Sequence record: NC_048194.1
Direction: 5' to 3' (one strand)
Source: Escherichia phage vB_EcoM_WFH
DNA length: 64,000 bases
Shown piece after piece: positions 5,612 through 55,683 of this stretch. A program made the translations under genes and the position numbers. The notes under the pieces were generated by a model. It saw only the letters and a program-made list of their open reading frames with translations, was not told where the DNA came from and ran no database searches. Each line of letters begins with the position of its first letter. The first letter of the stretch is position 1.

Positions 5612-5684
5612 CTCACTTGTTAACGTATAATGAGTATAACTTAATAGTGCATAAAGTAAAGGCGCTGAAAGCGCCTTGAGTGAA

Positions 5685-8047: not shown

Positions 8048-8389
8048 TTAATTTCTTTTGAGAGGAATATGACGGTTGCTGTCATTATTTGGTTTAATAA
8101 TGAGCATAAAAACGATTAGAAAGATGATGGCTGATATACTTAATTCAATCAGCGCGGCCTGAGATATGGATTGATCTTCATGATACTGCTTTTGCATTTC
8201 TGCTTTCTTCTGAGCGCAAACTTCAGGCGATATATAATCACCTTTTGAGTTGCCATAATAAATCTCGCCATTTTCAGAAATAAGTCTGCCGCAAATATCC
8301 GTATCGGCCTTTGCACTCGACATCATAATAACGGTGCCGATGATAGCAGCAATTGTCCAGATTAGCAGTTGTGATAAAGTATTGTTCAT
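8048..8389 (-). CDS. Small membrane protein with two predicted transmembrane segments
   Basis: ORF trimmed to MNNTL after RBS AAGAGG; hydrophobic N- and C-terminal stretches. Confidence 0.5.
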   Translation of the reverse strand: MNNTLSQLLIWTIAAIIGTVIMMSSAKADTDICGRLISENGEIYYGNSKGDYISPEVCAQKKAEMQKQYHEDQSISQAALIELSISAIIFLIVFMLIIKPNNDSNRHIPLKRN

Positions 8390-8585
8390 GATAACCTCTT
8401 TAAATTCCCTTCCCATATCGGGAAGGGCGAATGTTATTTTAAGCGAAAGAATAGGCGAGTGCCACACAGAGAGTCCCAACGGCCTTCGCCGTCCCATATC
8501 GACCCAACACCAGCGGTGATTGGGCCAGCAGAATTGGCGGCATTGGCCCAGGCGAGACGTTTTAATTTCCAACTGCACCAACGAT

Positions 8586-8819
8586 TCACAGTTCATCTCC
8601 AGACTTCAAAATTAATCCCGCATAGATTATTGCCAAAGCTAAAGGCGCACCGCCGCCAGCCTCTCTATTCTCTTTGATTTGAAGAGTATCTTTTAGGAAT
8701 TGAAGCTGAACGTTGAATTCATTTTCAATTCCAAGCACTCCAGCTAATTCTTTTACAGAATCTGCATATGCCTTGTCTATCACTTCTTTTGGCACCGTTA
8801 AGGTTAATTCATTTGCCAT
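8586..8819 (-). CDS. Hypothetical protein
   Basis: Start chosen at MANELT with upstream GGAGTGGAAAG. Confidence 0.45.
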   Translation of the reverse strand: MANELTLTVPKEVIDKAYADSVKELAGVLGIENEFNVQLQFLKDTLQIKENREAGGGAPLALAIIYAGLILKSGDEL

Positions 8820-9030
8820 TTTCTTTCCACTCCACAAATGTACTGCTACTTGTTTCTCTATTTAGCAGGTATCTGCCGCGCATTCCACGAAGGCTGAACT
8901 CAACCGTCGATGGATTAGATTTTGAAAGCCACATCACTTGACCGTCGAACGGTCCGCCAACGCATGTGTATTTGGCCTTTGGCTCACTCCTTTTGGGCCT
9001 CTTTGCCCGCTCTTTGATTGATAGTCTCAT
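8809..9030 (-). CDS. Hypothetical basic protein
   Basis: 73-aa ORF in operon-like packing with neighbours. Confidence 0.4.
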   Translation of the reverse strand: MRLSIKERAKRPKRSEPKAKYTCVGGPFDGQVMWLSKSNPSTVEFSLRGMRGRYLLNRETSSSTFVEWKENGK

Positions 9031-9245
9031 CAGTCTTCACCTTGAGATTCAAGACAAGTAAGAACAAGCCACGTCATCGGAAGAATCAAAACCAGAGAAA
9101 TAAGTGACCAAATGGACCAACACAAGATGACAGACTTGAATGTATGAACGTCGCCAAACACAGCAGTGAAACAAAATCCCATCACGAAAGCAAGCGCGGT
9201 GGAGTGGTTGTCAATGGCTTTGATGGCACGGTCGATGAGTTTCAT
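9030..9245 (-). CDS. Small membrane protein
   Basis: 71 aa with two hydrophobic helices. Confidence 0.5.
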   Translation of the reverse strand: MKLIDRAIKAIDNHSTALAFVMGFCFTAVFGDVHTFKSVILCWSIWSLISLVLILPMTWLVLTCLESQGED

Positions 9246-9350: not shown

Positions 9351-9422
9351 GATCACCCTTTATCCACTACTAAGCTGGAATCACAATTTTACTTGATATA
9401 GCTGTCGCAAGCAAACTATAAT

Positions 9423-10883
9423 ATGAATAAAATATTAACACATAATTGGAAAGTCATGTACCAGTTGAATCCTGCTTTAAGAGAAGTCTGGAAGACGAAA
9501 GCGCGATACAAAGTCATATACGGCGGTCGTGCATCTTCCAAATCGCACGATGCCGCTGGTTTTGCTATTTATTTGGCGGCAAACTTCAAATTAAAATTCC
9601 TTTGCGTTCGACAATTCCAGAACAAGATTTCTGAATCAGTATATACGCTATTAAAAGATAAAATAGAGATTTCTGATTTTAAAGACGAGTTCAACTTATT
9701 AAAAAACTCTATTGAACACAAAAGAACAAAATCTGAATTTTTATTTTACGGTATCGCACGCAACGTTGACGAAATCAAATCAACAGAAGGTGTTGATGTT
9801 CTTTGGCTTGAAGAAGCGCATGCACTGACTGAAGAGCAATGGGACATTATTGAGCCGACAATTCGTAAGGAAGGGTCCGAAATATGGATCATATTTAACC
9901 CTGATGAAGAGGCTGATTTCGTCTACCAGAACTTTGTTATGCGACCGCCGAAAAATGCCATCGTTAAGAAGATTAACTGGCAGGACAATCCATTCTTGTC
10001 GCAAACAATGCTGGATGTTATCGCTGGCATGTATGAGCGCGACCCGAAAAAGGCAGAACACGTTTATGGCGGAGTGCCGAAGACAGGTGGCGATAAGTCG
10101 GTCATCAACCGTGCATTCGTCAAAGCCGCGCTAAACCTCCACAAACACCCTACGCTGGGATGGAGCTTGTCAGGGTCTAACCGTATAGGCTTCGACGTGG
10201 CGGACGACGGCGACGACTTAAACGCCACAGCGTTTGTCACAGGCAACGTATTACGTGGCATCAAGACATGGGAAGGTCTGGAAGATGAATTGCTTAAGTC
10301 CGCAAGCGGAGTCTGGAAAGACGCATTGACATTCGGCGCATCAATCACCTATGACGCCATCGGTGTTGGTGCATTTGCTGGTTCAAAATTTGATGAGCTT
10401 AATGAGTATGCAATCCATGAAAATCCAACATTCCCAAGAATCGAATTTAATGCGTTCAACGCGCAAGGTGCTGTTGATGATCCTGATGACGTCTTCCTTG
10501 AGTTACCACACGTTGAAATACTCAATAAAGACCATTTCGCAAACATAAAAGCGCAAAAATGGACTGAGATTGCCGAACGATTCAGAAAGACATATGAGTA
10601 TGCGACAGGGCAAGCCGTATATCCGACCGATGAGTTGATTTCCATCGACACAGACGGCATCCCAGAACTTGGTATTCCCGCTTGGTCTGCGGAAGAAATT
10701 GAGACGTTTCTTTTTGAGATGTCAGCACCGCGCAAAGACACGTCTGTACTTGGCAAGTTCAAAGTTGAATCGAAAAAGGATATGGCAAAGCGTGGAGTCA
10801 AATCGCCTAACAAAGCGGACGCAGCAATCATGGCATTGATGAAACCAATTGTTGCAGCATCCGGCTTCTTCTCTAACCTTTAA
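9423..10883 (+). CDS. terL: Terminase large subunit
   Basis: Walker A GGRASSKSH near the N-terminus, Walker B-like VLWLEEAH, nuclease-type C-terminal half; 486 aa; portal follows. Confidence 0.9.
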   Translation: MNKILTHNWKVMYQLNPALREVWKTKARYKVIYGGRASSKSHDAAGFAIYLAANFKLKFLCVRQFQNKISESVYTLLKDKIEISDFKDEFNLLKNSIEHKRTKSEFLFYGIARNVDEIKSTEGVDVLWLEEAHALTEEQWDIIEPTIRKEGSEIWIIFNPDEEADFVYQNFVMRPPKNAIVKKINWQDNPFLSQTMLDVIAGMYERDPKKAEHVYGGVPKTGGDKSVINRAFVKAALNLHKHPTLGWSLSGSNRIGFDVADDGDDLNATAFVTGNVLRGIKTWEGLEDELLKSASGVWKDALTFGASITYDAIGVGAFAGSKFDELNEYAIHENPTFPRIEFNAFNAQGAVDDPDDVFLELPHVEILNKDHFANIKAQKWTEIAERFRKTYEYATGQAVYPTDELISIDTDGIPELGIPAWSAEEIETFLFEMSAPRKDTSVLGKFKVESKKDMAKRGVKSPNKADAAIMALMKPIVAASGFFSNL

Positions 10884-35541: not shown

Positions 35542-37326
35542 ATGCCAACACTTATTAACAGACCTTTCGCGCAAAGCGGTGATGTATCCGTGGTGCCGGA
35601 TGCAAGCCCAAGCGGTTATGTGAACTTCCAGCGCGGCTACACACCTGACTATGCGCTTGCCCTGGAGGCTGGAAACGTCGCCGCGAAAGCTGTTGAGCGC
35701 GAATCCATGAACTGGTTGCTGAATTTGATTACAGACAACCTTATGTTTATTCAAGATCATGGCGCTCAACAATATTTCTCTTCTGACTTGAAGCCGGATG
35801 GATACCCGAAAAACGCCATCGTAGTAAGCAACTCTGGAACGCCTTCAGCGCCTGAGTGGCGCATCTTTCAAAGCGTGGTCGACGGCAACACAAGCGCCGT
35901 ACCAGCCAACGGAGAAACGGAATCTTGGCAGGAATTAACGCTGCCCAGCGAAGCGCGAAAATACATTCCGATGCCTGCTGGCGGCGATGCGCAAAACCCG
36001 TACTTTGTTCGTGGATTGATTTCAAGTTTTGTGGACTTCGATAATATCACGACTTCCACAACTATCGTGATTCAATCCGATTCCGTCGCCGCTCTGTGCT
36101 CTAACATCCCGAATGCGGTTGGCGCAACGAAGGTTGCAGGTCGGCTGCAGGTCTGCGCTTGGCAGGTCGATGCGCAGACCTTTGCCTTGCAGCAATATAC
36201 ATCAATGAATGGCTATTTGTTTACTCGCTCTTATGCTTCTGGTGCTTGGAGTGCTTGGATTCAAAATGCCACTGTTCAAGACGTGCAAATTGGAACGCCG
36301 AATCTTGCATCAGGTAAAGGAGCGCAAGACATAATCCTTACCGTCCCAGCAGGTTATTCATGGCCTCCGTCAGCAGGTAGTCGCCTGACAATCGTCAATG
36401 ATGTAACGACTACCGGACCTGTCACAGTGACCATTGGTGTAAACAAAGTTGCCGTTCTTGGATTCGACGGCAGCGAGTTGCCAGCTGGCGCTATCGTAGG
36501 CCTGTTGCCATTCACCATCATCTATGACGGCACTGTTTGGCGTCTTCTTCAGGCATTCGGCGCGGCGCAAATCGGCGTTGATGCTACGGAGCCGCAGCAG
36601 TTTGTTACCAAAAGGCAACTTGACGCGCTTGCCGCGAAGTTGATTACCATGGGCGACGTATTCGAAGTTGGTGAGACTCGATTCCTTACCAACGGTACTA
36701 ACCCAAACACTAAACTGGGCGCTTACGGTCAGGTATGGACAAGGTTGCCTGATAACATGGTGATTCGCACGTCTGGCACGGCGCGAAACGGTCTTGATAC
36801 AGGCGGTGCAGACTCTGTTACTCTTACCGCTGCAATGCTTCCACTCCACAATCACAGTGTGAACATTACCACGCGACAAAGTGGTCCATGGTCAAATACC
36901 ACTGGAGACGCAGGCAACCATAACCATATAGGTGATACAAGCCAAAACGGTGCTCACTCTCACGGTATGGATGCGGCTGGCAACCACCATCACGACAGTG
37001 GATGGGGCGAGGCGTTTGCCGACCAAGCTCGATACGGAGTTTATGATGGAACAAACAACAACATTGGAAGCAGAAAGACGGATTATGATAACTACAAGTT
37101 CAACACTTCAACTAACGGCAACCATGTCCACAATATTCAATCTTCTGGTTCACACACCCATGGCTTGAATATTCAATTTTCCGGCAATCACAGCCACAGC
37201 TATACACTTCCCGCTCACACTCACGATGTGGTCGGTAACACTGGCGATGCAGGACAGTCCGTGCCGACGGCTGTTGCTACTTTGCCGCGATACGTTGTTT
37301 TGAATGGCTGGTACAGAAGCGCATAA
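35542..37326 (+). CDS. Tail fibre with His-rich receptor-binding tip
   Basis: Fibre-type N-terminus; C-terminal HxH boxes (NHNHIGD, GAHSHG, GNHHHD, HVHNIQ, SHTHG, NHSHS, HTHD) as in metal-binding fibre tips. Confidence 0.65.
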   Translation: MPTLINRPFAQSGDVSVVPDASPSGYVNFQRGYTPDYALALEAGNVAAKAVERESMNWLLNLITDNLMFIQDHGAQQYFSSDLKPDGYPKNAIVVSNSGTPSAPEWRIFQSVVDGNTSAVPANGETESWQELTLPSEARKYIPMPAGGDAQNPYFVRGLISSFVDFDNITTSTTIVIQSDSVAALCSNIPNAVGATKVAGRLQVCAWQVDAQTFALQQYTSMNGYLFTRSYASGAWSAWIQNATVQDVQIGTPNLASGKGAQDIILTVPAGYSWPPSAGSRLTIVNDVTTTGPVTVTIGVNKVAVLGFDGSELPAGAIVGLLPFTIIYDGTVWRLLQAFGAAQIGVDATEPQQFVTKRQLDALAAKLITMGDVFEVGETRFLTNGTNPNTKLGAYGQVWTRLPDNMVIRTSGTARNGLDTGGADSVTLTAAMLPLHNHSVNITTRQSGPWSNTTGDAGNHNHIGDTSQNGAHSHGMDAAGNHHHDSGWGEAFADQARYGVYDGTNNNIGSRKTDYDNYKFNTSTNGNHVHNIQSSGSHTHGLNIQFSGNHSHSYTLPAHTHDVVGNTGDAGQSVPTAVATLPRYVVLNGWYRSA

Positions 37327-37334
37327 GGTGATTT

Positions 37335-37979
37335 ATGATTAATGCAAACGTAATATCTAAAGGGACCGGATGCAGCATGGATGTTGCAGAGAAATGGGTG
37401 GACCATTTCAAGCAGGCTTGTGAGCACTACGGAATCAAAAGCAAGAATGCCATCGCGGCATTCCTTGCAAACGTAGGAGTAGAGACGGGCAGCTTGAAGA
37501 CCTTTGTGGAAAATCTCAACTACTCTGCTCAAGGTCTTGCCAATACATGGCCTAGTCGTTACAGCGTCAACGGTCGCTCTGGAAGTGCCCCGAACTCATT
37601 GGCCCTGTCGATTGCCCGTAAACATGTGGAAATCGCCAATAATACATATGCAAACCGCATGGGCAACGGTTCAGTAGCATCTGGCGACGGTTGGAAGTAC
37701 CGTGGCCGTGGTGCCATTCAGCTGACTGGAAAGGCCAACTATGCGGAATATACGCGTCAATCAGGCTATGATGCATTGAACAATCCTGATATTCTGACTG
37801 AACCAAAATACATTGCTGACAGCGCGGCATGGTTCTTTAAGAATAGCGGCTGTATTCCTCTTGCGGATGCAGGAAATTTTGATTCAACCGTTAAGCGGAT
37901 TAACGGGGCCGCGCCGAACGCAGCAAACCACGGCGAGTTGCGAAGAAAGCGTTACAAGGATGCATTAGCAGTTATGTAA
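37335..37979 (+). CDS. Endolysin, glycoside hydrolase family 19-like
   Basis: GH19-type motifs FLANVGVETG and KYRGRGAIQLTGKANY; RBS AAGGTGA. Confidence 0.8.
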   Translation: MINANVISKGTGCSMDVAEKWVDHFKQACEHYGIKSKNAIAAFLANVGVETGSLKTFVENLNYSAQGLANTWPSRYSVNGRSGSAPNSLALSIARKHVEIANNTYANRMGNGSVASGDGWKYRGRGAIQLTGKANYAEYTRQSGYDALNNPDILTEPKYIADSAAWFFKNSGCIPLADAGNFDSTVKRINGAAPNAANHGELRRKRYKDALAVM

Positions 37980-37984
37980 GAAAA

Positions 37985-38010
37985 AGGCCCATATGGGCCT
38001 TTGTTTATTT
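37985..38010. terminator. Bidirectional intrinsic terminator
   Basis: AAAAA-GGCCCATATGGGCC-TTTGTTTATTTT between convergent genes. Confidence 0.6.
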
Positions 38011-38235
38011 TACGGCTTCAACTTGGACGGGCGGAGCGGAACTTGTATCAATGTCTGGCAAGTCGAAGTAATACCCCGCCATACCAATTGCACCCACAAT
38101 CGCGGCCCGTGCCACCTTGTTGCTAATTGACTCCCCAATAAGCTTTACCAACAGGGATAAGATTTGAGACGTCAAAGCCTTTTTCAGCCTTTTGTTTTCT
38201 TCCAAATCTTTCTGCATAACTACCACCCATGTCAA
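38005..38235 (-). CDS. Small membrane-associated protein (holin or antiholin candidate, unverified)
   Basis: 76 aa, charged amphipathic N-terminus and one hydrophobic segment; adjacent to endolysin on the opposite strand. Confidence 0.4.
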   Translation of the reverse strand: MTWVVVMQKDLEENKRLKKALTSQILSLLVKLIGESISNKVARAAIVGAIGMAGYYFDLPDIDTSSAPPVQVEAVK

Positions 38236-38774
38236 CGCACTTCCTGTGTCTTAACATTACCTGAAGCATCTCTCAAGGGCAGTGGATAGTAGGCCATTTG
38301 GTAGTCTGATACGCCTTCAATGTGATAAAACACGATTACGTCTTTGCTGTTGATGAGCATGTTAACGACATCTGATTTATCTTCTGGAGTGAGTATTAGT
38401 GCGCCGCCTGTCCTGCTGTCTACTGCAACAGGGTATGTCTTGTCGACAAGGCCGCTGTCCAATGTATTATACCTGACAACGATTTCAGGGGCATCAACTT
38501 TTGCCATTGACATTCCGAACACAAACGACACGACCTGCCGACCGCGATCATTCATTACGCACATCTTTTCTTTGTCAAATCTTTCTTTTATTACGTCGTA
38601 TTTATTCCAGCAAAACTCAAATGACTGCCCATTGTTAAAATATCTTGTCAAAACTTTTGCACTTCCATTCGGCGGCGTAAACATATTTTCAGCCGATGCA
38701 GTCTTGGTGAAGAATATAACTGTCAGCATAGCCATGATGATGATCAAAACAATCTTTAATTTGTTCGCTTTCAT
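38232..38774 (-). CDS. Secreted / periplasmic protein of unknown function
   Basis: Signal peptide with ASA-EN cleavage-like site; no lipobox. Confidence 0.5.
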   Translation of the reverse strand: MKANKLKIVLIIIMAMLTVIFFTKTASAENMFTPPNGSAKVLTRYFNNGQSFEFCWNKYDVIKERFDKEKMCVMNDRGRQVVSFVFGMSMAKVDAPEIVVRYNTLDSGLVDKTYPVAVDSRTGGALILTPEDKSDVVNMLINSKDVIVFYHIEGVSDYQMAYYPLPLRDASGNVKTQEVR

Positions 38775-38858
38775 TATAATTCACCTTTTGATTATGAATA
38801 TTAATAGTATAGGCTTAAGGTTTTGAAAGTAAATACGCCGAAAGTAAATAAAAGAAAA

Positions 38859-38874
38859 GCCGGAAATTTCCGGC
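38859..38874 (-). terminator. Intrinsic terminator after the ligase operon
   Basis: Palindrome GCCGGAAATTTCCGGC; on the minus strand followed by TTTTCTTTTATTT. Confidence 0.55.
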
Positions 38875-38949
38875 TTTATGTATACACTGTATATTAAATT
38901 CTAGAAAACGGCGCGATAGATTATACGCAACAATTATTTATCCAGTGTG

Positions 38950-39927
38950 TTAAAAATACTCCATATCGGTAATATCACGGAAGCACTTATACAAGGCAGA
39001 GCGCGGCACGTCAACTATGCCAAAGTTAAAGAATTTATATGTCAAATACTTGTTTCGATAATTCTCGCGATTCTCCCAAAGCATTTTTCTCTCTGCCATA
39101 GGCATTGAACCAGCGGAGACGCGGAAGGGAATCATTTCACCTTTCTCATCAACATATTTTGGATTGACAACCACAAATGATCCAAGGTATCCTTTTGCAA
39201 CTAAGCCTTCAGCCTCTTTCGAACGCTTAGTGCGACCCAACTCATCAATGAATGCTTCGTTGTTATTCTCCATCATCTCAACGAAGTCTATGATCAGTCC
39301 TTCTTCATCGGTCCACGGCTTGTCCTTCCACACATCACGTGACTTTGGCGTCGCGCGGCCATGCTTGTATTTGCCCGTCCAAGACTTGCCATACAAGCCT
39401 TCATAGCCAAGCTGGTCTGCTTCGATTTGCATCGCCGCGTACTGTTCCATATTTTCGATGTTTCGATATTCGAGAGCGCGAAGGAATGGGCGTCGACCAT
39501 GGTTGATGAGGTGCTGATTGACTTCAGCAACTCTAGCGCGATAGTTTGCATAACGCTTTTCAAAAGGCAAATCAGGGTCGCTGAAGTCATCAAACACCCA
39601 CCATGTAAAGTTAGTGATTGCATCAGTGTTCATGCATGCAGTATAGGCCTGTTGCATGACGTTCTTGTCATTCGGATTACCGTCAATTAGCTCTCCATCA
39701 AGTCCGTGAATCAATTCACCCAAGAATAGGAACTCTTTTTTGATTTGAATGTTGCGCAGTGCCATGCCGGATGTGCCCATTGGCAAGTTGTCATACGCCA
39801 TCGCGCGTATTCCATCGACCTTGAAGGATAATCCGCAAGGCAGCGGCACATCTTCGCCGCGCTCGATGATTTGTTTACGCTGGCAACCTTTCATTGGTTT
39901 TAATGCTTTGATTTCTCCTGCCATCAC
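38950..39927 (-). CDS. ATP-dependent DNA ligase
   Basis: Motif I KVDGIR, motif III DGEL, motif IV VFDDF, motif V EGLI. Confidence 0.8.
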   Translation of the reverse strand: MMAGEIKALKPMKGCQRKQIIERGEDVPLPCGLSFKVDGIRAMAYDNLPMGTSGMALRNIQIKKEFLFLGELIHGLDGELIDGNPNDKNVMQQAYTACMNTDAITNFTWWVFDDFSDPDLPFEKRYANYRARVAEVNQHLINHGRRPFLRALEYRNIENMEQYAAMQIEADQLGYEGLYGKSWTGKYKHGRATPKSRDVWKDKPWTDEEGLIIDFVEMMENNNEAFIDELGRTKRSKEAEGLVAKGYLGSFVVVNPKYVDEKGEMIPFRVSAGSMPMAERKMLWENRENYRNKYLTYKFFNFGIVDVPRSALYKCFRDITDMEYF

Positions 39928-40517
39928 TCAAACTCCTTATTCATCACTTGTTCCAGCGCATAGGCATAAGCCTGATCAGTCGATTTAATAAACGTTCCGT
40001 TGTACATCACACCTTTACGGTCCTTGATGTCTTCATAGGCGGCTTGAGCGCAATCAGACAGTCGAAGTCCATAATCATGCGCTACGCCGGAAAGATAATC
40101 GACTGCGGCCATGATAGTGACATCAATATCCATGCTTTGATTTTTAGCAATGGCGTCACCAAGCCGTCCGAGAGTCTTCGCCAAGCGAAGGATAAAGGAA
40201 TGAGGGTGAGCGCCTTTGTCAGCGCAACCGCCTCCGTTGATGTCTTCGATTTTTGCACCATTTTGCGCGGCAAGAATAGTTAACACAACAAGGCAATCAC
40301 CGATGTCGTCCTTGATTGCGGCTTGCAAATCACAAATGGCCTGCTCTGTATATCCGATTTCAGGGTCAAAGAACACAAGGTCATGGAGTTGATCCACGTG
40401 GTCGGTCAACTCCCCAAACTCGCTAATAAGCTTCGGGTATTGGTCTTTAAGGCCGCAACCTTTGATGATGTTACGGTCAGAAGCCCATTGGCGAATGTTT
40501 GCATAAATCTGGTTCAT
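39924..40517 (-). CDS. mazG: MazG-like nucleoside triphosphate pyrophosphohydrolase
   Basis: All-alpha NTP-PPase pattern: EFGELTDHV and DDIGDCLVVLTILAAQNGAKIED. Confidence 0.65.
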   Translation of the reverse strand: MNQIYANIRQWASDRNIIKGCGLKDQYPKLISEFGELTDHVDQLHDLVFFDPEIGYTEQAICDLQAAIKDDIGDCLVVLTILAAQNGAKIEDINGGGCADKGAHPHSFILRLAKTLGRLGDAIAKNQSMDIDVTIMAAVDYLSGVAHDYGLRLSDCAQAAYEDIKDRKGVMYNGTFIKSTDQAYAYALEQVMNKEFE

Positions 40518-41032
40518 TTATTTTCCTTTGATGCGTTGAATTGGTCGATTTTAATTTTAGCCTGATTATAAGTATCAATCAAGCTATTAACTTTCTCTTT
40601 TAATCGGTTCGTTTCTGCGGCGAACTGAACAAGAAATCGGACATCCTCTTCTGATAGTCCACAGTTTCCTTCTGGGATAGAGAGGCGTCCAGTGGTCGCA
40701 GAGTAGGGCACACTCCTGAGTAATTCACGGGAACAGCTGAGTTGCTCGCGCAGCTTGATATTCCCAGACTTGTAACGAGCAATAGTGTCATCAGCAACCA
40801 GTTGCGCTTCCTGGCGACCCTTCTCATATGCCGATGCCGATTCAACCTGTAAAGATGCAATTTGCTCTTCGAGTGCATTTATCTTGTCCTTACGCTCATT
40901 AAGCGATGTCAGATATTGATTGTCCTTGGCCAGTGATGCGTTGGTTTGCTGAAGGTCTTCAACGTATGATCCAGCGGCGAACGCGCCAACAAGGGCCAGA
41001 ATCTTCAGTAGCGGTACAATTCTTTCTATCAT
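40514..41032 (-). CDS. Rz: i-spanin (Rz-like)
   Basis: N-terminal transmembrane segment then long periplasmic coiled coil; contains the embedded lipoprotein ORF. Confidence 0.6.
   Translation of the reverse strand: MIERIVPLLKILALVGAFAAGSYVEDLQQTNASLAKDNQYLTSLNERKDKINALEEQIASLQVESASAYEKGRQEAQLVADDTIARYKSGNIKLREQLSCSRELLRSVPYSATTGRLSIPEGNCGLSEEDVRFLVQFAAETNRLKEKVNSLIDTYNQAKIKIDQFNASKENK
40600..40827 (-). CDS. Rz1: o-spanin (Rz1-like) embedded in an alternative frame of the i-spanin gene
   Basis: MRRVARKRNWLLMTLLLVTSLGISSC: basic n-region, hydrophobic core, lipobox Cys, then Pro-rich segment; start could also be the downstream Met. Confidence 0.55.
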   Translation of the reverse strand: MRRVARKRNWLLMTLLLVTSLGISSCASNSAVPVNYSGVCPTLRPLDASLSQKETVDYQKRMSDFLFSSPQKRTD

Positions 41033-41089
41033 GATGCACCAGATAAATAAAAGGCCGCCAATCGGCAGCCTTGTTGATTTGATTGTCGA

Positions 41090-41950
41090 TTAAAACTCTT
41101 CTGCGTCGGTCGGAGTTTCATTGACAGGACCAGCGGCACCACTTGCTTCTTCCTGCTTGCTGCGGTCAATGTTAACGTTGCCGCCAACCACGTCGTTGTG
41201 GAATGCTTTGGCGACTTCGTACAGGCCTTTGTCCTGCACCAGACCTTCCAGCTCAAACTTCAGGACGGACCAGGTGTTGCCGTCTTTGGACTGAGACGCA
41301 GTACCCATGCGAACGATGTTCATGAAGGTCGGCGGCGTTTTCAGGCCCTGCGGAGTCTGAACTTTCTTCTGCTGCAGAGCGGTCATCAGCATGCGAGACG
41401 GCTTGATCATGGAAGAAGTCAGAGACAGCATTGCACTACCAAATTCACCAGTTTCTTCGTTCAACAGAATCACGAAGTGGTTACGTGTATCTGCGTAGTA
41501 AGGTGATTTCTTCTCGTGCACCTTGCCGTTTTCGTCTGGCACAAACACCTTACCGTTGATCTCAACAGCGCGGCCTGCCGCGACTTCTGCATCAACGTGC
41601 TCTTTGGTGAATTCACCTTTAAAGCCTTTATCGTCGGACTCGCGACCGCCCCAAAGGATGAAGGTGCGTTTGAATGCGCAAGGGATGATCTGCACGCCCT
41701 TCTTGCCGTCATACAATTCACCAGTAACGGTGTTGTACAGCATACCAGCTTTTGCGCCAGGAACGTGTTTTGGATCATCTTCGTCGACCATCGGAGACAT
41801 CTTTTGCAGTACGACGATAAAAGGAATGGCATAAGCGTCGGCATCGGCACCTTCAAAACCAGCGCCAAAATCGGTCATATCGACAAAATCAGCCATAGCG
41901 GACATCTGGGTGTTTTTTGCTGCAACTTCGGTAGTTTCTTTCTTAGACAT
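41090..41950 (-). CDS. Putative single-stranded DNA-binding / recombination protein
   Basis: 286 aa ending in an acidic tail that terminates in Phe (TDAEEF), a hallmark of phage SSBs; fold not verified. Confidence 0.4.
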   Translation of the reverse strand: MSKKETTEVAAKNTQMSAMADFVDMTDFGAGFEGADADAYAIPFIVVLQKMSPMVDEDDPKHVPGAKAGMLYNTVTGELYDGKKGVQIIPCAFKRTFILWGGRESDDKGFKGEFTKEHVDAEVAAGRAVEINGKVFVPDENGKVHEKKSPYYADTRNHFVILLNEETGEFGSAMLSLTSSMIKPSRMLMTALQQKKVQTPQGLKTPPTFMNIVRMGTASQSKDGNTWSVLKFELEGLVQDKGLYEVAKAFHNDVVGGNVNIDRSKQEEASGAAGPVNETPTDAEEF

Positions 41951-42009
41951 TTGGTGTTTTCCTATAGTATCAAGTTTCGTGGCAACCTGATTTCAAGATA
42001 AAGGTTAAA

Positions 42010-55655: not shown

Positions 55656-55683
55656 TTGACTTTGTATCACTCAATATTATACT
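55656..55683 (+). promoter_or_regulatory. sigma70-like promoter for the primase operon
   Basis: TTGACT, 16-nt spacer, TATACT, about 30 nt upstream of RBS AAGGAAAG. Confidence 0.55.

Follow-up and report, generated by a model that had tools for sequence, protein, structure and literature searches.

The dispersal of lysis genes is textbook knowledge for phage T4 (Kongari 2018; PMC6139136), in which the endolysin, holin and spanin genes (e, t, rI, pseT.2/pseT.3) are unclustered and the spanin genes lie amid unrelated genes. Here we analyse a similarly scattered set of lysis genes in a 64,000-nucleotide stretch of Escherichia phage vB_EcoM_WFH (NC_048194.1; hereafter the window), comprising a GH19 endolysin gene at the end of the tail operon, an embedded Rz/Rz1-type spanin pair and a small gene convergent with the endolysin gene. 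T4 differs from this arrangement in that all its components are genetically identified, neither of its spanin genes is embedded in the other, the two being separate, and its endolysin is from another family. By megablast, positions 37000-42000 match Shigella phage CWP003 and Wifcevirus WFH with 100% identity along all 5 kb and are 89-97% identical to other Wifcevirus coliphages (ECML-117, Mansfield, vB_Eco4M-7, WFC and BASEL Bas98-101), with weaker matches to Pseudomonas Pbunavirus; judged by these identities, the phage belongs to Wifcevirus, a known genus of PB1-like myoviruses. We consider it probable that the locus is the dispersed Wifcevirus lysis gene set and that it serves, most likely, an ordinary three-step Gram-negative lysis.

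Among described phages, Pbunavirus (PB1, 14-1, JG024, E217) offers a close comparison, as it has the same GH19 endolysin ending the tail operon (55% identity), a convergent small gene of the same family (here called LRP, after a 'lysis-related protein' of Pantoea phage PA1), a shared bidirectional terminator, and the same order of Pam3-gp34-like gene, a one-gene slot, MazG and ligase. The two genera differ in what fills that slot, which is a membrane protein of 201 amino acids (aa) in Pbunavirus and the Rz/Rz1 pair in Wifcevirus; additionally, Pbunavirus has a u-spanin with an AWAC lipobox near the terminase gene, and Wifcevirus an extra secreted protein of 180 aa. A first-pass annotation of the stretch had called the arrangement atypical for a lysis cassette, which is true only against the lambda cassette: in the loci of the four PB1-like genera that we compared (Pbunavirus, Kylevirus, Myosmarvirus and Wifcevirus), it is standard. 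The four genes singled out by that annotation are all present at or near its coordinates and conserved, as judged from the table of open reading frames (ORFs) and from relatives, and gene coordinates bear out an endolysin and a spanin pair on opposite strands, 2.5 kb apart. The main features are as follows.

37335-37979, plus strand: soluble GH19 endolysin, last gene of the tail operon (Pfam GH19, phrog_181, PDB 8p8e, SPN1S 4ok7)
38005-38217, minus strand: 70-aa LRP-family protein (phrog_5165), helix-loop-helix with an acidic tail, candidate membrane permeabiliser; homologues are convergent to the endolysin gene
38232-38774, minus strand: 180-aa secreted (periplasmic) protein, predicted to be co-transcribed with the 70-aa gene; signal peptide, conserved cysteines
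40514-41032, minus strand: i-spanin (Rz-like), 172 aa, N-terminal anchor and two-cysteine periplasmic domain (phrog_1327, Rz homologues, Kongari 2018)
40600-40827, minus strand: o-spanin (Rz1-like), 75 aa, embedded, lipobox GISS|C, 50-aa mature lipoprotein (Kongari Table S1, conservation)
38950-40517, minus strand: context, an ATP-dependent DNA ligase (38950-39927) and a MazG-like pyrophosphatase (39924-40517) downstream of the spanins in one unit

Gene identities, scattered layout and missing holin are all on record, and the finding is already known, since the genes and their layout stand in GenBank and in the 2018 spanin census and the holin gap is acknowledged for the group; as it stands, it thus matters little. 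What the present analysis adds is the link of the small ORF to PA1-LRP and 14-1 gp48, a negative result for a signal-anchor-release (SAR) sequence in the endolysin, the exchange of the 201-aa protein and Rz/Rz1 at one slot, and named holin candidates.

In the sequence of events that we propose, a small membrane-active protein would open the inner membrane, a step that is inferred only; the soluble GH19 endolysin, made from the end of the tail operon, would then, by homology, cut the wall; and finally the Rz/Rz1 spanin, by homology and architecture, would span the periplasm and disrupt the outer membrane after the wall is cut.

For the second step, the endolysin gene starts 8 nt beyond the end of the tail-fibre gene, and its product is recognised by Pfam GH19 (PF00182, 32.8 bits against a cut-off of 25.5) and by phrog_181 'endolysin' (1.9e-69), so that its description as the GH19 endolysin closing the tail operon holds. 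Residues 3-212 align to the solved structure 8p8e (4.5e-74), a full-length globular match, and the structure of the Salmonella phage SPN1S enzyme (4ok7) is matched at 7e-30. The ANVGVETGSL segment pairs with ANIGVESGGL of 8p8e, in the conserved Glu-containing helix of the GH19 core, and the Glu of this GVE(T/S)G helix is presumably catalytic, as in the GH19 family. Set beside the solved GH19 phage endolysins, which have the same full-length globular fold, helix and core, the window enzyme differs in nothing of note, having neither an added binding domain nor a SAR sequence. Whether it might be a SAR endolysin had been raised by the earlier annotation, and the answer is negative: hydrophobicity scales and the structure alignment reveal neither a SAR nor a signal sequence, residues 1-30 are polar, and the best window of the N-terminal 80 aa (19-residue Kyte-Doolittle value, KD19, of 1.15; dG19 of +7.9) is an internal core helix of the solved fold. 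Mild hydrophobicity is confined to NAIAAFLANVGVETGSL, which forms a conserved core helix inside that fold, and the polar N-terminus together with the full-length alignment to a solved globular endolysin rules the SAR option out. On these comparisons the endolysin is a soluble cytoplasmic GH19 enzyme. It has been found by mass spectrometry in lysates of two Wifcevirus phages (Necel 2020), and in synthetic vB_Eco4M-7 it is strongly expressed and accepts a tag (PMC11074155).

For the third step, the embedded pair at 40514-41032 and 40600-40827 is, by homology and architecture, a lambda-type Rz/Rz1 spanin pair that has already been published. The i-spanin matches phrog_1327 'Rz-like spanin' at 1e-26, and its tblastn homologues are the Rz genes of Yersinia phages PY54 and P840, Burkholderia phage Mica and Pantoea phage LIET2 (1e-6 to 4e-14 for PY54, Mica and P840). 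Its anchor is IVPLLKILALVGAFAAGSY (KD19 of 1.80, dG of +4.0), and its cysteines lie in LSCSRE and EGNCGL. The o-spanin gene lies wholly within the i-spanin gene in another reading frame; its product has the signal MRRVARKRNWLLMTLLLVTSLGISS|C followed by a 50-aa mature part, whose cysteines are the lipid-modified one and one in SGVCP. Profile scores for the o-spanin are weak (phrog_4306 at 5.8e-4; Pfam O_Spanin_T7 at 0.094). Its frame is open and its lipobox present in 27 Wifcevirus records (89-100% identical), the cysteine-containing region is conserved, and sequences similar to the mature part (1e-7 to 2e-4) are encoded by ORFs lying inside the Rz genes of PY54, P840, LIET2 and Acinetobacter phage Alexa. 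Together, the phrog_1327 match, the Rz homologues, the lipobox and the conserved frame uphold the reading as an embedded Rz/Rz1 pair. The o-spanin start is likely 40827, giving 75 aa as in Kongari 2018, whereas GenBank records take 40878.

The 2018 census counts the ECML-117 pair among the embedded two-component spanins, giving lengths of 172 aa for the i-spanin and 75 aa for the o-spanin and GISS as the lipobox; it divides the i-spanin into 24 N-terminal residues and a periplasmic domain of 148 aa, for which a coiled coil is predicted (Kongari 2018; PMC6139136). The window proteins are 99.4% (i-spanin) and 98.7% (o-spanin) identical to that catalogued pair and have the same build as the lambda Rz/Rz1-type and ECML-117/Mansfield pairs, a 172-aa type II inner-membrane protein with periplasmic cysteines and an embedded 75-aa outer-membrane lipoprotein; in the clustering of the census, both ECML-117 subunits are sequence singletons. 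The GenBank records of Mansfield (MK903282) and of the BASEL phages likewise carry i-spanin and o-spanin annotation. Unlike lambda, the window has its spanins outside any holin/endolysin cassette, at the head of a MazG-ligase unit and translationally coupled to MazG: the i-spanin stop overlaps the MazG start (ATGA, a 4-nt overlap), and ligase is next. The spanins had been placed after ligase and MazG in a replication module; along the direction of transcription they precede MazG and ligase. In synthetic vB_Eco4M-7, a C-terminal tag on the i-spanin yielded no plaques, for which a broken overlapping MazG start is an equally possible cause (PMC11074155).

The first step is where the candidates diverge. 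Having no export signal, the endolysin cannot get to the cell wall unaided, and soluble endolysins in the Caudoviricetes that have been studied are known to rely on a holin or an equivalent. The absence of a clear holin, as first described, is upheld: neither the complete Bas99 record nor the Mansfield locus carries a holin annotation, our literature search found no paper naming one for Wifcevirus, and no membrane-protein candidate matches a holin family in Pfam, PHROG or NCBIfam. The PA1 paper likewise did not identify a holin (PMC11538084). We scanned for membrane proteins across the whole window and the Bas99 genes absent from it, using crude hydrophobicity scales (KD and dG). Bas99 genes 0079-0092, the part of that genome outside the window, encode no protein with a transmembrane domain (TMD), and besides the spanins and the secreted protein the scan yielded proteins of 71, 113 and 77 aa and three peptides of about 30-37 aa. 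Two of these are additional holin candidates.

9030-9245, minus strand: 71-aa protein with two strong transmembrane segments (KD19 of 2.32, dG17 of -2.8), the main alternative holin candidate
8048-8389, minus strand: 113-aa protein, a signal/anchor at its N-terminus, a transmembrane segment and basic tail at its C-terminus; Wifcevirus-only, a weaker holin or antiholin candidate

Our first, if tentative, choice for the inner-membrane opener is the 70-aa LRP-family protein at 38005-38217, placed ahead of the others because it is the product of a core gene that always abuts the endolysin gene and has some experimental support on a homologue. The gene had been drawn as 38005-38235 with a short hydrophobic segment; gene and hydrophobic stretch are both there, and the start is probably 38217. 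That ATG has a GGTGG ribosome-binding site and is the annotated start in Mansfield and Bas99, so the product is probably 70 aa long rather than 76 aa. The ORF is present in 27 Wifcevirus records at 96-99% identity, and it matches phrog_5165 'unknown function' at 1.4e-7. An exhaustive HMMER search of 1.84 billion clusters returned a small family of seven representatives, none of them informative, and members are found in Pantoea phages Kyle and PA1, Pseudomonas phages E217 (gp49) and 14-1 (gp48) and Serratia phage MTx (gp058). In each of these loci the gene is convergent with the endolysin gene; the homologues in other genera, at the same position, are 33-51% identical, and G28, E29, R37, G48 and Y50 are invariant in the family alignment. 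The AlphaFold2 model has a helix at residues 2-30, a loop, a second helix of 18 residues (34-51) and a disordered acidic tail, with a confidence (pLDDT) of about 67. The protein further has a charged N-terminus, basic in other genera, and an acidic C-terminal tail, and its gene lies 25 nt from the endolysin stop.

The experimental support comes from PA1-LRP, to which the 70-aa protein is 48% identical across 58 aa (2e-14). The published cloning primers for PA1-LRP map onto the PA1 homologue of the 70-aa ORF, and the homologue is therefore PA1-LRP itself. Expressed alone, PA1-LRP lowered optical density by 13-20%, inhibited growth, raised beta-galactosidase leakage and gave 24.65% dead cells, against 1.03% for the vector; a construct with the endolysin killed more strongly (PMC11538084, 2024). 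The two loci agree in position and orientation beside the endolysin gene, in the upstream secreted-protein gene and in the two predicted helices. They differ in that the evidence for PA1-LRP, from Pantoea phage PA1 (Kylevirus), is from over-expression and fusions in E. coli, whereas the Wifcevirus 70-aa protein is known from sequence alone; we found no follow-up study on PA1-LRP in the literature.

Several points weigh against the LRP-family protein as the opener. It has two hydrophobic stretches of about 14 residues flanked by conserved charged residues and no TMD of the usual strength: on the crude scales its best 19-residue window has a KD of 1.23 (threshold about 1.6), a dG19 of about +7.4 and a dG17 of +4.5, which is on a par with a helix buried in the soluble endolysin and below the i-spanin anchor. 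The lambda S holin is likewise more hydrophobic than the 70-aa protein. No curated holin family matches it in Pfam or NCBIfam, and PHROG gives phrog_5165 only. Furthermore, the PA1-LRP effects are weak and unlike the abrupt, triggered lysis of a holin; they were obtained with fusion and co-expression constructs over-expressed in E. coli and read out at 6-24 h, and the same paper includes no complementation of a holin-defective phage (PMC11538084). In 14-1, the gene for the homologue gp48 is transcribed monocistronically from a start of its own to a terminator of its own and has a lower GC content; its authors describe it as 'moron-like'. Finally, the unit in the window lies behind a sigma-70-like promoter of the kind seen in the terminal-repeat and primase regions, which hints at early or constitutive rather than late expression.

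Several of these points could be read in favour of the 71-aa protein at 9030-9245, which we consider a less probable opener but the next in line, placed second because no other small protein here has TMDs of holin grade and because its distribution tracks the lineage-specific change in lysis genes. Under this alternative, which we likewise hold to be somewhat unlikely, the 71-aa protein would be the real holin and would have arrived in a lineage-specific turnover that brought Rz/Rz1 and removed the 201-aa protein and the u-spanin; the unit of the 180-aa and 70-aa genes would then provide an early envelope function, such as superinfection exclusion or protection against lysis from without, and the toxicity of PA1-LRP would be an over-expression artefact. 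The two strong TMDs within 71 aa suit a holin, as does the restriction of the protein to Wifcevirus (27 records, with none from any other phage), a distribution parallel to that of Rz/Rz1, and the gene shares a leftward row with the tail-fibre gene, a late function. The LRP unit, for its part, has its own sigma-70-like promoter and terminators and a separate, moron-like homologue in 14-1, and the LRP protein lacks a full TMD and produces mild phenotypes in its PA1 version. On the other hand, the short, acidic C-terminus of the 71-aa protein (ESQGED) is unlike the basic C-terminus of most holins, the gene adjoins no lysis gene, and the protein has no family matches and no homologue of known function. 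It is also preceded by a sigma-70-like promoter (TTGCCT-16-TATAAT at 9299-9272), so timing is no point in its favour. Moreover, the LRP family is conserved in the core of four genera, in every case directly beside the endolysin gene, which fits poorly with a dispensable moron.

A further reading, which we hold to be unlikely, is that PB1-like phages have no canonical holin and that the 70-aa LRP protein, a helix-loop-helix without a full transmembrane segment, releases the endolysin, expressed from its own host-type promoter and, here, with a periplasmic partner. If so, LRP would represent an inner-membrane permeabiliser of a new class, and the reported lysis time of about 10 min could follow from its expression being early and of a constitutive type.

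The 113-aa protein at 8048-8389 is an improbable opener. Its gene lies in the same leftward row as the 71-aa gene, upstream of the 774-aa tail-fibre gene; neither protein has family matches, and searches with the 70-aa, 180-aa and 71-aa proteins returned close relatives only. The remainder of the probability falls to some other opener. We observed five small genes in this row (8048-9245, minus strand), between the terminase-divergent promoter and the tail-fibre gene; three encode hydrophobic segments (the 71-, 77- and 113-aa proteins, the 77-aa one with a weak C-terminal stretch), and the 77- and 113-aa genes have a low GC content of 0.37-0.39. Elsewhere in the window, a 41-aa ORF inside the tail-fibre gene (36209-36334, plus strand), with a strongly hydrophobic N-terminus and a basic tail, was rejected as an alternative-frame ORF arising by chance: Bas99 lacks its start codon, its 'TMD' contains a proline, and its amino-acid identity of 75-85% is below the nucleotide identity of 89-92%.

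It is quite improbable that there is no dedicated holin at all, with the endolysin leaving through general membrane failure in a very fast infection or through joint leakage from several small membrane proteins, which would be those of 113 and 77 aa along with the peptides of about 30-37 aa. The lack of a detected holin family among the membrane-protein candidates, the existence of several tiny TMD peptides and a reported Wifcevirus cycle of about 10 min, an unusually fast lysis, are consistent with such a scheme; however, it departs from the established dependence of soluble endolysins on a holin or equivalent, and holins are so diverse that a missing homology hit is expected and uninformative. 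That both the o-spanin frame and the small ORF arose by chance, making the scattered picture an annotation artefact, as the weak o-spanin profile scores might suggest, is effectively refuted by comparative sequence evidence, namely the conserved o-spanin frame, lipobox and matches in distant Rz genes and the LRP homologues at the same position in other genera, with the chance ORF at 36209-36334 serving as a control that shows the opposite pattern.

Returning to the preferred reading of a dispersed three-step lysis set, the spanin slot offers a view of how the set may have been assembled. In Pbunavirus, Kylevirus, Myosmarvirus and a Burkholderia relative, the gene for the 201-aa membrane protein (phrog_1544) is flanked by the Pam3-gp34-like gene on one side and MazG on the other (compared loci L007:8730-9335, L003:2054-2659, L013:2630-3235, L008:8913-9518 and L011:4882-5487). 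We find no tblastn match to it in the window or in the full Bas99 genome, and the Rz/Rz1 pair fills exactly its slot, with the 4-nt MazG overlap retained. From this shared slot, and from the nearest relatives of the pair being the Rz genes of Yersinia, Pantoea and Burkholderia phages, we infer that the pair was acquired by replacement of the ancestral 201-aa gene. The 201-aa protein has a glycine-rich N-terminus, a coiled coil and two C-terminal TMDs forming a hairpin; its JG024 version, ORF52 (14-1 gp51, E217 gp52), has been described with three TMDs and proposed as a 'probable holin'. Its exact replacement by Rz/Rz1 in Wifcevirus suggests instead that it may be a spanin analogue. Serratia phage MTx keeps the 201-aa protein, and according to the CPT announcement by its annotators neither a holin nor a spanin was identified in that phage; the Kyle locus likewise carries no spanin annotation. 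Membership of the 201-aa protein in GTA_holin_3TM was considered and is not supported by Pfam, in which the sole near-threshold hit is a C19orf12-like glycine-zipper region. The exchange at one slot amounts to a natural experiment on interchangeable lysis functions. The holin gap is of practical concern, as Pbunavirus relatives are among the Pseudomonas phages most used in personalised therapy, and, since a synthetic-genome platform exists for a Wifcevirus, vB_Eco4M-7 (PMC11074155), the three named holin candidates are directly testable.

Pbunavirus has further membrane-protein genes away from this slot. In E217, gp09 (L009:3643-4026, minus strand), the u-spanin candidate, combines an AWAC lipobox with a C-terminal TMD and lies two genes from the 145-aa multi-TMD gp11 (L009:4895-5332, minus strand). 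Both belong to a leftward block bounded by the terminase gene and the gene for the minor head protein (gp19), which may be the real membrane-lysis cluster of Pbunavirus. By gene-map inspection, neither the u-spanin nor gp11 is found in Wifcevirus. We considered E217 gp10, between the two, as a hidden SAR endolysin and rejected it, as it carries DUF2786 and DUF7168, and we could not reproduce the observation, made in Kongari 2018, of pinholin-SAR systems alongside the u-spanins of PB1.

The 180-aa protein at 38232-38774 was described as secreted, and a strong hydrophobic core and an A-S-A cleavage motif agree with this. The signal peptide reads MKANKLK, then IVLIIIMAMLTVIFF, then TKTASA|E, with a dG15 of -4.9 for the h-region and no lipobox on inspection. 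The AxA motif is kept in relatives (ARA or AKA in Wifcevirus-like homologues), C55 and C72 are invariant, and Kylevirus homologues are found at 2e-35. MTx has a secreted protein at a similar place with an ADA cleavage site, a likeness of position and signal peptide, and the E217 and 14-1 loci have no gene at this position. No family matches the protein in Pfam, PHROG or NCBIfam, and its AlphaFold2 model is poor (pLDDT of 45). The gene abuts the small ORF; the protein is probably a periplasmic partner or regulator, or else has an unrelated envelope function, and co-transcription with the 70-aa gene is the only lead. In the PB1-like Burkholderia phage Karil-Mokiny-1, we noted two ORFs with lipoprotein signals (…LTSIYGC… and …LSSLAAC…) between endolysin and MazG (L008:6632-7460, minus strand); the endolysin-proximal region may be a general hot spot for envelope-acting genes.

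The lysis genes are divided among transcription units by the following predicted elements.

37983-38002, both strands: bidirectional intrinsic terminator, AAAGGCCCATATGGGCCTTT, serving both the endolysin gene and the small ORF convergent with it; its plus-strand T-run is matched by one on the minus strand
38806-38833, minus strand: sigma-70-like promoter, TTTACT-N16-TATACT, for the unit of the 180-aa and 70-aa genes, from motif inspection and recurrence
38856-38877, minus strand: intrinsic terminator after ligase, closing the spanin-MazG-ligase unit; also annotated in Mansfield
41051-41072, minus strand: terminator between the Pam3-gp34-like gene and the i-spanin gene; also annotated in Mansfield

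A terminator of the kind at 37983-38002 is annotated in Mansfield, 14-1 and MTx as well. The window contains five copies of the promoter motif, where 0.17 would be expected (2353-2380, minus; 2425-2452, plus; 5633-5660, minus; 38806-38833, minus; 55656-55683, plus), and a looser search with a variable spacer adds a sixth site (2822-2850, plus). These intergenic copies follow a recurrent motif, TT(T/G)ACTT...N...TATA(C/A)T, and two of them sit directly after intrinsic terminators; apart from 38806-38833, the sites are in the left-end region and ahead of the primase block. Based on this recurrence, the motif is probably the promoter class by which the phage uses host RNA polymerase. Ahead of the terminase gene, the best promoter-like site (within 9393-9456, plus strand) ends at 9422 and abuts the first ATG of the ORF at 9423, and the Bas99 terminase annotation is 11 codons shorter than the window ORF; taken together, these two observations place the true terminase start, probably, downstream of that first ATG.

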